Of a stretch of 64,000 bases of DNA, positions 10,101 to 13,100 are shown piece after piece. Location: the NCBI RefSeq assembly GCF_048403405.1, contig NZ_CP183129.1. One strand, given 5' to 3'. Source of the stretch: Escherichia coli. GTDB lineage: Bacteria > Pseudomonadota > Gammaproteobacteria > Enterobacterales > Enterobacteriaceae. Every line of letters starts with the position of its first letter. Position 1 is the stretch's first letter. A program made the position numbers.

Positions 10101-13100
10101 TCTTCAGCTCTTCGCCGAAGTACCAGGTGAGATGACCCGGCATATAGCCTATCTCTGGCGTTTGTTTGTCTGCGGCGTCTGGGAATGCGCAAATGGAATA
10201 ACCATTCAGTGGGTTATCGCCGTGGCGAAGCGCCAGAAAAGCCGCCGGGCCGTGGCAAAGGGAGATAACAAAACGGTCATTTTTGATTGCCCACTGTAAA
10301 GCGGCAGCTACGTCCTGGCTTTCAGGTAAACCAATAAGTGCGCCATGACCACCAGGAACAAAGATTGCTGCATATTCGCTATCAGCGTTGAGGCTGGCGA
10401 CAACATCCGCGAGTTTCTTCGGATTGCGGAACAACGATTTATGCTGCTCAAAGAATGGCATTACTTTTTCATCTTTGTGCGGCATAGCCCAGTATTCAAA
10501 CTTGGTCAACAGGCCGGAAATGGTCGCCACTTCGAATTCGAAACCTGCAGCATGGAGATGATACAACGGCAGCAACGTTTCAATCGGATGGTTACCGGTC
10601 GAGAACAGTTTTCCGTTATCGGTCGGCAAATAACGTTCGTCCGCGGCGATCACCAGAATTTTATGTTTACCGCGATACGGTTTTGGATAGTCCACGCCAT
10701 CAAGATCAGAGACAGGACTGGTATATTGGCTAAGCGAATATTCTGAAGGGAAGAATGCATTATCTTCAGCAATATCGACCTGCGGATTTTTACTTGTTTG
10801 AACAGTCATAGTGTATTCCTTATTGTTGCTTAGTTAGGGTGGTCACTATATTTGCGACTGAGCTGGTCGCTATTTTTAACCAGGCTGGAAAATTGAGTCA
10901 ATATATCGAAAGCGGTAGTCGGCGGGTGTAAGTATGTAATGATGATGCTGCACTGGTGTTGAATATTATTCACGCCAAATTTTCCTTATTGAGTAACGTC
11001 GTCGCAAGTGGCCTCAATGATTTTAGACCATTATCAGAGGTACGGGGTGGCGGGGAGAGATTTAGTGCTGTGGAATATTGTGGTGCTGATGAATATTTAT
11101 ATCGCGGATTGGTAGAGAAAAAGCTTATTTCATGCACTATTTTTGCAAATATTTCTATATGGGAAGCGTGTTTGTTACGGATTAATTCATAAAGAAATGC
11201 ATTTGGGTGTTAGCTTGAAGAGTAGCTGGTTGATGTTATTGTGCCAGGAGGGGCAGGGTAAGGTGCTGTATCGATATGCTTCGGCAATTGCGTGTGCCGC
11301 AGATGGAGATGAAATGCCAATAAAAAAGCCTGAGTTCGATGAGGGACGAACTCAGGCTAGTGTTAAGTTTTACAGTAACACGCCGCAGCGAGTTGGCTGA
11401 TTAGAACTGGTAGACGATACCAACTGCAAACTGGTCATCAGCTGCTGCGCCAGTAATGGCGGCGTCATCTTTATCCAGCATGTTGAATTTGTATGCAGTA
11501 TAAACGTTCATGTTCTTATTAAAGTAGTACCAGGTACCAACTTCAATGTAGTTCACACGGTCAGCGTCAACATATCTATGTCCAGGTACCCCTTTGATAT
11601 CTTTACCTTTAGAGTACACATAACCTAAGGACGGACGCAGACCAAAGTCGAATTGATACTGAACAACCGCTTCAAAGTTCTGGGTTTCATTGATAAGTTG
11701 ATCACGCATTATTGTATTGCCTTCTCGATCGGCAACACCTGTATCAATAGAACCCGGAGTCATATTACGAGTTTCGCCGTACATTACAGCTGCGTAGACA
11801 TTGTTCGCGTCATACTTTGCAGCCAATGACCACAGTTCAGCATTTGAACCGTTTCCATCGGCAACTTGATCGTTGGTGCGATCAGATTTGCTATATGCAC
11901 CAACGATACCAAAACCATTGATGTTATAGTCTACAGACAACGCATAGCCGTCACCATTTTGTTTCTTAGTGCTACGGTTGCTGTTTTTGCCTTGGTACTG
12001 AATCGCAAAATCAAGACCATCAACCAGGCCAAAGAAATCATAGTTACGGTAGGTTGCAACACCGTTGGTACGACCATTCATGAAGTTGTCAGCGGAAGCC
12101 CAGGAATCGCCACCCCATTCAACTAACATATCGGTATAAGCTGCGGCATCATAAGCAACACCGTAGTTACGGCCATAGTCAAATGATCCTAACTCGTTAT
12201 ATTTCAAACCGGCGAAGGTTAAACGGGTTTTTTCCTGGTTTTCACCTTCGGGCTTGCTGGCGTCGAGGTTGTATTCAAACTGACCAAAACCAGTCAGTTC
12301 GCTGGTGATTTGGGTTTCACCTTTAACACCGAAACGAGCATAGGAGGTATCTTCGTTTTCGCTGTTATTATCATCAGTATTTGACCAGATGCGTTCGCCA
12401 ACCATCTTGCCGTAGAAATCAACTTTATTGCCATCTTTATTATAAATTTCAGCCGCATTTGCTGCGCCAGCAACTAATAACGCCGGGACCAGCATTGCCA
12501 GAACTTTTCTTTTCATTATGTATTCCCTTGTGATTATAATCTTCATGAATATATCAATAAGTGCCGTTATCCAAAAAAAAGCACATTTGGATACTATTCT
12601 ATGAAGTTCATTTTATTTTAAGGATTACATGTAACAAATGTATTTAAAAGATTTCAAAATGTTTCTAATCTATTTAATATAATTCAGGATTATGAATTCT
12701 GAATATAAACATTCATGAAGATTATAAATGTATATCAATAAGTTATGAGTTGAACTGAAAGATAGGGAGTATCAATGATCGTTGCGCTAAACGGCTGGTG
12801 TGATCACGCGCACATTAATGAAGGCATAAAAAAAAGCCGGCATCATGCCGGCCCAAAAAATATAAACAAGACGATAAAAGGCTAATAACGGAGGCATCAT
12901 GACACAGAATAATAAAAAGGTATAATTGTAATCAGTGCTAATATATTGATTGAATGAATTAATAAAGCCGATATCAAAGATAAATAAAATCGCTCAAAAC
13001 GATTTTTCTTGTATTCACTGCCGTTGCGCAAAAATTATCTATTTGTTCAAAAAATGATTGAGTCTTGACTGGCTCATTCAATGTGGAAAAATGTGATTTT

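Follow-up and report, generated by a model that had tools for sequence, protein, structure and literature searches.

An intact porin gene at the Escherichia coli yedS locus belongs to an OmpK35-like lineage

Introduction

What does the yedS locus of Escherichia coli encode when its porin gene is undamaged? In K-12 MG1655 the gene (b4496) is annotated as a pseudogene, and a complete reading frame at this position could be the same gene before it was damaged, an import from another genus, a silent relic or a working porin. We addressed this question in a stretch of 64,000 nucleotides (the window) from E. coli contig NZ_CP183129.1 (assembly GCF_048403405.1). The original prediction, made from the sequence, was that an intact OmpC-family porin occurs here in place of the K-12 pseudogene and that the strain may express an extra general porin.

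Intact YedS is already known, and the gene described here is annotated in hundreds of genomes. Warner et al. 2013 (AAC 57:1935) reportedly described an intact, active yedS in non-K-12 carbapenem-resistant clinical E. coli as one component of a carbapenem-resistance mode, which ties the gene to carbapenem susceptibility (cited in PMC4048246). A porin "50% homologous to K-12 YedS" (K4Y655) has been found in surface proteomes of an O26:H11 strain (PMC9731836). Either study may concern another allele class. Strains with intact yedS would have one more outer-membrane route for small hydrophilic molecules, beta-lactams and carbapenems included. Because of this added route, resistance predictions based on ompC/ompF lesions alone can mislead. 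We conclude, with a probability of roughly 80%, that the allele in the window, which we call class A, encodes a functional general-diffusion porin of an OmpK35-like lineage that is probably minor and conditionally expressed.

Results

A complete porin gene at the yedS locus

The gene lies between hchA and rseX/drpB(-yedJ), which is the yedS locus, and the K-12 pseudogene occupies the syntenic position. Gene order at the locus is the same in the near-identical record NZ_CP033850.1 and in K-12, and neither the ompC-micF locus nor the asnS-aspC (ompF) locus is the position of the window gene. Beyond position 54798, strain FDAARGOS_497 has an extra island that is absent from the window.

The predicted uninterrupted frame of about 371 residues was borne out. 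It runs on the minus strand from an ATG at 12516 to a TAA at 11403-11401, no internal stop or frameshift was found in the 371-aa ORF, and on realignment the protein matches OmpK35 over residues 1 to 371. A longer form of 381 aa could begin at an ATG at 12546; the start annotated in RefSeq gives the 371-aa form (WP_000824355.1, "porin"). The coding sequence is 100% identical to the class A porin annotated in NZ_CP033850.1, and strains MS 69-1, 4621 and FDAARGOS_497 carry this same allele. A signal peptide and a ...VGIVYQF end had also been predicted, and both are evident in the sequence and in alignments to OmpF/OmpC. None of the E. coli yedS alleles examined differs in its signal peptide, which is almost the same as the OmpC/OmpF leaders, and the C-terminus has the aromatic beta-signal ...YxF. 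The protein is predicted to use Sec for export, losing a 21-residue leader by cleavage, and to enter the outer membrane by means of the ...YQF signal at its C-terminus. The strong terminator claimed downstream is likewise present, with a 12-bp stem (11358-11327) that contains 7 G-C pairs and is followed by the T-run TTTTTATT. The 86-nt 3' region folds with -33.4 kcal/mol, compared to -16.5 ± 2.8 for shuffled sequences (z = -6.0).

Table 1. Positions of the class A porin gene and neighboring features in the window.
Feature	Position	Strand	Basis
yedS-locus porin CDS, allele class A, 371 aa + stop	11401..12516	-	ORF list, Porin_1 match
Sec signal peptide, residues 1-21, cleavage before AEIYNK	12454..12516	-	read from sequence
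L3 constriction motif VEWGG, residues 132-136	12109..12123	-	alignment
Allele-specific surface loop L6 extension, residues 255-277	11686..11754	-	protein alignment
Allele-specific "cassette", mature-porin coding segment	11420..12445	-	alignment and sliding identity
Shine-Dalgarno AAGGGAA, 6 nt upstream of ATG	12523..12529	-	sequence
Candidate sigma-70-like promoter TTGTTA-16-TAAAAT	12610..12637	-	consensus scan, 9/12
Putative OmpR-box-like block, four phased 10-bp units GAAACATTTT GAAATCTTTT AAATACATTT GTTACATGTA	12626..12665	-	likeness to OmpR boxes
CRP-like site TGTGATCACGCGCACA, separating rseX from the promoter region of yedS	12799..12814	.	sequence
rseX sRNA gene, directly upstream of the yedS regulatory region	12829..12918	-	Rfam RF01401, 99 bits (gathering 50)
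Rho-independent terminator, 12-bp stem, 8-nt loop, T-run	11317..11358	-	scan, fold

Family, predicted fold and pore residues

Assignment to the OmpC family proved correct in the broad sense of the general porins. Pfam PF00267 (Porin_1) matches end to end (residues 27-371 against profile positions 1-337 of 337, E = 2e-118), with a score of 396 bits against a cut-off of 23.7. The protein is not OmpC proper, however, because its score against the NCBIfam OmpC model (NF007841, 417.4 bits) lies under the 484 cut-off. The OmpF (NF007446, 449.9 bits, cut-off 583) and PhoE (NF007544, 414.4 bits, cut-off 599) equivalog models also scored it below threshold.

The AF2 model of the class A porin is a barrel (pLDDT 78, pTM 0.75). 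Foldseek searches with this model returned OmpK35 5o77 (TM 0.92) and Omp35 as best matches, then OmpF entries; superpositions on OmpK35 and OmpF gave TM 0.87-0.92. The protein is predicted to be a 16-stranded beta-barrel with L3 in the pore, as is typical of the family. It would assemble as a trimer, with a pore narrowed by L3 that is predicted to serve general diffusion. All ten constriction residues are kept (K16, R42, R82, R132, D113, E117, G119, G120, Y102 and Y106, numbered as in OmpF via protein alignment), among them the basic cluster K16/R42/R82/R132, which in this family faces acidic D113/E117. The window porin has PF00267, the leader type, the pore architecture and the charged constriction in common with E. 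coli OmpF, OmpC and PhoE, but those proteins are encoded at other loci and are 57-61% identical to it. In L3 the window porin has VEWGG, whereas OmpF, OmpC, PhoE, OmpN and K-12 YedS have PEFGG. Its L6 is 14 aa longer than in a 357-aa allele, with extended strands there in the AF2 model.

The K-12 pseudogene represents a different allele

K-12 yedS is interrupted, as the original prediction stated: codon 162 is an in-frame TAG, and one nucleotide is missing near codon 222. We used NC_000913.3 2034051-2035243 as the reference and compared its protein as a repaired frame. The window gene could be this same allele as it was before the stop codon and frameshift, a reading implicit in the original prediction and favored by the shared locus, the identical signal peptide and the 97-100% identity of the promoter region, 5'UTR, signal peptide, last codons and terminator. 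Between these near-identical flanks, however, 30-column identity across the cassette is mostly 0.1-0.9, and the mature-coding segment has ~70% DNA identity with many indels. The mature proteins are 59% identical. Alignment with the unlinked paralogues gave 60% for OmpF, 57% for OmpC, 61% for PhoE and 59% for OmpN, so the comparison proposed with the prediction failed to single out K-12 YedS as the closer match. Moreover, the window and K-12 porins fall into separate clades with 92-100% bootstrap support, and true intact K-12-type (class C) proteins occur in other strains, 87-97% identical to the repaired K-12 frame; one of 397 aa is 97% identical. The DNA and protein alignments refute the same-allele reading, to which we give almost no credence. 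The gene is thus an intact occupant of the yedS locus, as predicted, but not the intact counterpart of the K-12 pseudogene.

The K-12 pseudogene is instead a class C, OmpN-like allele of the same locus. Class C genes encode proteins of about 395-397 aa with PEFGG in L3 and long OmpC/OmpN-like loops, and they are annotated as "porin OmpC", "outer membrane protein yedS" or "outer membrane protein S1". The yedS copy of O157 SS52 is frameshifted. What classes A and C have in common is limited to the promoter/5'UTR/signal-peptide block, the last codons and the terminator. K-12 is a poor reference at this locus, its pseudogene standing for one of at least five allele classes. Calls of yedS as "intact" or "disrupted", or the naming of its product as "ompC" by similarity, conflate proteins that are only ~60% identical and whose pore sizes, specificities as phage receptors and antigenicity are probably not the same.

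An OmpK35-like lineage shared with other genera

The closest characterized relative of the window porin is Klebsiella OmpK35, with 67% identity over the mature protein. Matches to solved structures gave the same ranking, with OmpK35 (486 bits) above E. coli OmpF (399) and OmpC (~313). The nearest relatives overall are the syntenic porins of E. fergusonii (84% identity), Citrobacter (78%), Enterobacter (77%) and K. oxytoca (72%), whose genes adjoin yedJ-dcm-vsr-yedA-yedI. In neighbor-joining trees, the window porin and the syntenic porins of other genera form one clade (bootstrap 84-97%, with 92-97% for the grouping with the Citrobacter, Enterobacter and K. oxytoca homologues) that clusters with OmpK35, while the K-12 allele joins OmpN at 100%. 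VEWGG is present in every member of this lineage that was aligned. The class A YedS lineage is a grouping defined here by synteny, monophyly and VEWGG, and it corresponds to no curated family; the protein cluster containing the window porin has 1321 member sequences. The class A allele is the positional orthologue of these porins from E. fergusonii, Citrobacter, Enterobacter and the K. oxytoca group.

OmpK35 of K. pneumoniae (PDB 5o77, 9hn1), the OmpF-type porin of Klebsiella, has VEWGG and the same constriction residues, and by analogy the window porin would be expected to form a wide channel, non-specific and open to beta-lactams. The OmpK35 gene is flanked by asnS and aspC, the window gene by hchA and rseX/drpB. 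The two proteins differ at one third of their residues, chiefly within surface loops, and L6 is 14 aa longer in the window porin. OmpK35 is also a major porin, which the window porin probably is not.

A recent horizontal transfer, for example of an ompF/ompK35-type gene from Klebsiella or Enterobacter, could have replaced a K-12-like gene. Such an import would account for the sharp identity breakpoints at the signal-peptide end and in the last codons, for a gene G+C content of 44%, below the genome average, and for the grouping of the window porin with OmpK35 and not with E. coli OmpF. Outside Escherichia, however, identity to the closest proteins reaches only 72-78%, and the flanking genes of E. 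coli and E. hormaechei are 67-86% identical. Because the porins have diverged to the same extent as their neighbors, no recent donor is visible, and no protein with a >95% identical mature segment was found among the 5.8 billion searched. In addition, E. fergusonii has the 84% relative, and OmpK35 itself is encoded at the asnS-aspC (ompF) locus and is only 67% identical. We therefore consider a recent import very unlikely.

Regulatory signals and expression

Citrobacter, Klebsiella and Enterobacter all retain the Shine-Dalgarno block AAAGGGAATA.ATA. Consensus scanning of the yedS upstream region found promoter-like sites to be no more numerous than in shuffled sequences, so the case for the candidate promoter in Table 1 is its position within a block conserved across genera. 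The putative OmpR-binding units are the best-conserved upstream block across four genera. We compared them with OmpR box sequences (ompC C1 and others): the resemblance is modest (11-13 of 20), with 13/20 matches to the C1 site and the 11-mer ACATTTTGAAA common to both. At 2033766, the K-12 equivalent of the CRP-like site, a CRP footprint has been assigned to yedS (PMC12871828). The neighboring rseX is repressed by H-NS/StpA in K-12 (PMC8313858), and the 300 bp upstream of the porin gene have a G+C content of 23-26%. With this AT-rich upstream region and an H-NS/StpA-repressed neighbor, the window porin may be silent under laboratory conditions.

Small RNAs were examined as candidate regulators. 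Warner and colleagues reportedly described MicF-dependent regulation of yedS in 2013. The predicted pairing energy of the MicF 5' end with positions -70 to +30 of the window gene was -7.7 kcal/mol, weaker than for any of the 60 shuffles, and lent no support to MicF control by base pairing there; the positive control, ompF, gave -27.1 kcal/mol (z = -4.8). MicF may still act indirectly or through a distal site. Pairing of RseX with the yedS initiation region was no better than in shuffles.

Salmonella ompS1 is OmpR-dependent, and its product, ~394 aa in length, is of a size that suggests the OmpN-like class and not the class of the window porin. yedS has been equated with ompS1 (PMC2731931). H-NS/StpA keep OmpS1 silent, and LeuO relieves this repression (PMC4264507). 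The upstream region of 23-26% G+C, the OmpR-like boxes conserved across genera and the weak codon bias of the window gene may hint indirectly at quiescent control of this kind. The best 120 matches of two protein searches came from Escherichia and the Enterobacter group alone, with no Salmonella protein among them, and a literature search on the Salmonella locus tag found nothing. We infer that the class A promoter is probably AT-rich, silenced in an H-NS-type manner and OmpR-responsive, like that of the quiescent OmpS1.

Codon usage was measured as a simple optimal-codon fraction. In the window gene, C-ending two-fold codons make up 0.46 and CTG 0.37, values like those of phoE and ompN. The corresponding fractions are 0.86 and 0.89 in ompC and 0.69 and 0.78 in ompF, a much stronger bias. 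Expression of the window porin is probably conditional; it would most likely be a minor channel and not a constitutive major porin, with a role in permeability mainly when OmpC or OmpF is lost or repressed.

These same features could also describe a cryptic, permanently silenced relic that is still intact by chance and contributes nothing to the outer membrane. The AT-rich upstream region, the H-NS-silenced rseX next to it and codon usage unlike that of a major porin all fit such a relic; many other alleles at the locus are pseudogenes or IS-disrupted, and human sera seldom contain antibodies against (K-12) YedS (PMC11242715). Yet dN/dS is low at every depth, 0.04-0.09 within class A and 0.08-0.16 against other alleles and genera, and 16 synonymous differences stand against 4 non-synonymous ones within the class. 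At least four genera have kept the lineage at this locus, its Shine-Dalgarno and upstream motifs conserved, every pore residue is conserved, and published work describes both an active yedS gene and the detection of a YedS-like protein in proteomes, each perhaps of another class. A relic is thus unlikely, although less so than a recent import. The dN/dS range of 0.04-0.16 indicates a functional gene under purifying selection; at the yedS locus, selection maintains the class A ORF as a full-length gene for an outer-membrane pore. Together with the conserved regulatory and translation signals, purifying selection makes the extra general porin of the original prediction plausible.

Deep allele classes at the yedS locus

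The allele structure of the locus is a by-product of this work that we find more interesting than the intact gene itself, and no description of it was found in the literature mentioning yedS that was searched. E. coli has at least five allele groups at yedS, separated by dS values of 0.5 to >1.3 between flanks that are 97-100% identical. Both deep classes, OmpK35-like and OmpN-like, also segregate in Enterobacter hormaechei, where the flanks are 97-98% identical and the mature segments of the alleles are 71% identical in DNA and 61% in protein. When E. coli and Enterobacter proteins of one class are compared, they are 20-22% divergent, close to the level of the flanking genes. For this reason, a polymorphism older than the split between the genera fits better than recent transfer. 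It is possible, though we put it at somewhat under even odds, that yedS is an ancient porin "cassette" polymorphism under balancing selection, with phages, colicins or host immunity as the probable agents, in which conserved promoter/leader and last-strand/terminator blocks bracket interchangeable OmpK35-like and OmpN-like segments. The class A allele is present in 892 of 5426 complete E. coli genomes (~16%), ExPEC-type strains included, and of four copies sampled, three are intact and one is cut by an IS.

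An intact porin gene at the yedS locus

The original prediction described a complete porin of about 371 residues with a leader and a C-terminal VGIVYQF, followed by a strong terminator. We found each of these features. The frame, whose strand had been left unstated, runs uninterrupted on the minus strand, and a search for internal frameshifts or stops between 12516 and 11401 found none. The protein covers the Pfam Porin_1 profile from first to last position (E 2e-118) and ends in ...VGIVYQF. A second in-frame ATG at 12546 would give a longer ORF, but the 371-residue start is favored because it is annotated by RefSeq, has AAGGGAA at the right spacing and is followed by a typical porin leader. 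A 12-bp G+C-rich hairpin and T-run lie 43 nt past the stop codon, and the 3' region folds much more stably than shuffled sequences (z = -6.0).

The gene is flanked by hchA on one side and by the rseX sRNA gene on the other, with drpB, yedJ, dcm and vsr beyond rseX. K-12 MG1655 carries yedS (b4496) at this position, and the original statement that it is interrupted is correct: the gene is annotated as a pseudogene, its frame broken by a TAG (codon 162) and by the loss of 1 nt near codon 222. The window ORF is therefore real and intact, and lies at the yedS locus.

Coordinates of the porin genes and neighboring features
Feature	Position	Strand	Remark
Window porin CDS	12516 (ATG) to 11403-11401 (TAA)	minus	uninterrupted ORF, 371 aa
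hchA	9958-10809
rseX	12829-12918	minus	Rfam 99 bits
CRP-like palindrome TGTGATCACGCGCACA	12799-12814		between rseX terminator and yedS upstream region
E. hormaechei OmpK35-like porin	L012 5001-6077		358 aa
E. hormaechei OmpN-like porin	L026 5001-6167		388 aa
ybtS	1-1175
Integrase gene	1369-2631
tRNA-Asn	2793-2868
DsrA sRNA gene	21254-21340		Rfam 102 bits

The window allele is OmpK35-like

The window and K-12 loci are 97-100% identical in DNA across the upstream region, 5'UTR, signal peptide, terminator and last ~6 codons. Between ~12445 and 11420, identity falls to ~70% with many indels, and the mature protein is 59% identical to frame-repaired K-12 YedS, compared to 60% for OmpF, 57% for OmpC, 61% for PhoE and 59% for OmpN. 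Repaired YedS is thus no closer to the window protein than these paralogues, and the mature-region values rule out that the window gene is simply K-12 yedS minus its lesions. Other strains do carry true intact equivalents of the K-12 allele, one of 397 residues (97% identical) and a very common one of 395 residues (87%); their annotated names vary between "porin OmpC", "outer membrane protein yedS" and "outer membrane protein S1". The claim of an intact porin where K-12 has a pseudogene therefore holds for locus and intactness, but the gene belongs to a separate allele class that resembles OmpK35.

Of the solved structures, Klebsiella OmpK35 matches the sequence best (486 bits), well above E. 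coli OmpF (399 bits) and OmpC (~313). An AlphaFold2 model (pLDDT 78, pTM 0.75) likewise superposes best on OmpK35 (TM 0.92) and Omp35, then on OmpF entries. The OmpF constriction-zone residues considered (K16, R42, R82, R132, D113, E117, G119, G120, Y102 and Y106) are all retained. L3 carries VEWGG, the motif also found in OmpK35, whereas OmpF, OmpC, PhoE, OmpN and K-12 YedS have PEFGG. A search of 5.8 billion proteins found the nearest relative in E. fergusonii (84% identity in the mature part), then Citrobacter (78%), Enterobacter hormaechei (77%) and the K. oxytoca group (72%). Genomic context was examined for three genera, and there the relatives' genes adjoin yedJ-dcm-vsr-yedA-yedI, the same locus, whereas the OmpK35 gene lies at the asnS-aspC (ompF) locus. 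In a bootstrapped neighbor-joining tree, the window protein forms a clade with the syntenic porins (84-97%) and OmpK35 (93%), and the K-12 pseudogene falls with OmpN plus a further yedS-locus class (100%). None of the NCBIfam curated cut-offs for OmpF, OmpC or PhoE is reached. Given these scores and the OmpK35 clade, "OmpC-family" is true only at the level of general porins. Together, these comparisons show that the window porin represents an OmpK35-like allele class, and is neither an OmpC orthologue nor a repaired K-12 gene.

Allele classes and their age

The yedS locus is multi-allelic. The counts below are from 5426 complete E. coli genomes, a match being counted when it covered 80% or more of the mature-coding query for that class.

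Allele classes at the E. coli yedS locus
Class	Representative or character	Length	Genomes
A	window	371 aa	892
A'	mosaic, N-terminal two-thirds as in A	357 aa	~750, inferred from identity bands
B	L004	352 aa	1142
C	K-12 and O157, OmpN-like	~395-397 aa	1662, approximate: query also touches paralogues
D	L007, OmpN-like	387 aa	366

Annotations and publications already cover intact yedS in non-K-12 strains, which makes the finding as originally stated ordinary; the class structure may be what merits follow-up. Pseudogenes occur in class C (K-12 and O157 SS52) and class B (GN04592). Among class A copies, three of the four sampled are intact, and IS-cut copies were found as well. Some class A copies are truncated or have the 3' end swapped for an IS3-family or other transposase (EC101, L021 1387-1776, and further search matches); the locus has therefore been repeatedly inactivated in individual lineages. 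The adjacent drpB is also annotated as a pseudogene, with an internal stop or frameshift, in GN04592 (L005 2402-2537) and O157:H7 SS52 (L006 2539-2672), for which coincidence, an assembly error or shared decay of this region are possible explanations.

Synonymous divergence between E. coli classes (0.5 for A vs A', 1.3 for A vs B) is far greater than such nearly identical flanks would permit. In E. hormaechei, too, the yedJ-proximal locus holds either an OmpK35-like or an OmpN-like porin, the two deep classes also seen in E. coli (L012 vs L026; also L024 and L025). Flanks and leader there are 97-98% identical, but identity in the mature segment is 71% for DNA and 61% for protein. When E. coli and E. 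hormaechei proteins of one class are compared, identity is 78-80%, which is comparable to the 67-86% of the flanking genes. An old, possibly balanced polymorphism fits better than recent transfer, as judged from a handful of sequences by distance methods only.

Selection and expression

Pairwise Nei-Gojobori dN/dS between the window allele and two further class A alleles is 0.09 (9 synonymous/3 non-synonymous differences) and 0.04 (7/1). Comparisons with other E. coli classes give 0.12-0.16, and those with Citrobacter, Klebsiella and Enterobacter 0.08-0.11. These estimates indicate strong purifying selection at every depth, and the porin is almost certainly functional. Variation concentrates in surface loops, and L6 of the window allele is 14 residues longer.

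The selection pattern would also support expression. Two published reports point the same way: one of an active yedS as part of a carbapenem-resistance mode (Warner 2013, in the paraphrase of PMC4048246), and one of a porin described as "50% homologous to K-12 YedS" that was detected in the surface proteome of an O26:H11 strain (PMC9731836). Expression may be low or conditional: upstream G+C is 23-26%, neighboring rseX is repressed by H-NS/StpA (PMC8313858), and yedS has been equated with quiescent Salmonella ompS1 (PMC2731931), which is H-NS-silenced and LeuO-derepressed (PMC4264507). Also counted here are the CRP-like site, whose K-12 equivalent is a CRP footprint assigned to yedS (PMC12871828, 2026 preprint), and the finding of no MicF or RseX complementarity to the yedS initiation region. 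Codon usage, which resembles phoE or ompN, unlike ompC or ompF, belongs on this side as well.

The SD block is conserved across four genera, as is a second, upstream block that consists of four phased 10-bp units (GAAACATTTT, GAAATCTTTT, AAATACATTT and GTTACATGTA); these share an 11-mer with the ompC C1 OmpR site. In E. coli, rseX immediately precedes the yedS regulatory region. At the Rfam gathering score, no rseX was found in the corresponding intergenic regions of Citrobacter, Klebsiella or Enterobacter, yet the promoter-proximal yedS motifs are conserved there.

Other features of the window

In the 590-bp hchA-yedS intergenic region (10810-11400), G exceeds C to an unusual degree (skew of +0.35 to +0.40 in 200-bp windows), and there is no Rfam match at gathering score. 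The region contains small ORFs, and one strain is annotated with a 136-residue hypothetical protein (L007 258-668).

The first bases of the window fall inside the yersiniabactin island, with ybtS, an integrase gene and tRNA-Asn, and positions 1-2868 differ from the annotated record at 2 bases; the strain is therefore ExPEC-like. In FDAARGOS_497, identical at yedS, the tRNA Gly-Cys-Leu cluster is followed by an IS3 and type I restriction-modification island. This island is absent from the window, which from ~54798 runs into core yecA-tyrP-araFGH, where it is 100% identical to strains 4621 and MS 69-1. Between yedL and fliE (~33893-35331), a 99.6%-identical annotated record has a frameshifted DUF5503 gene and integrase fragment, suggestive of an insertion into the flagellar region that has since decayed. 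The DsrA gene is in its usual place near rcsA/dsrB, and is ordinary.
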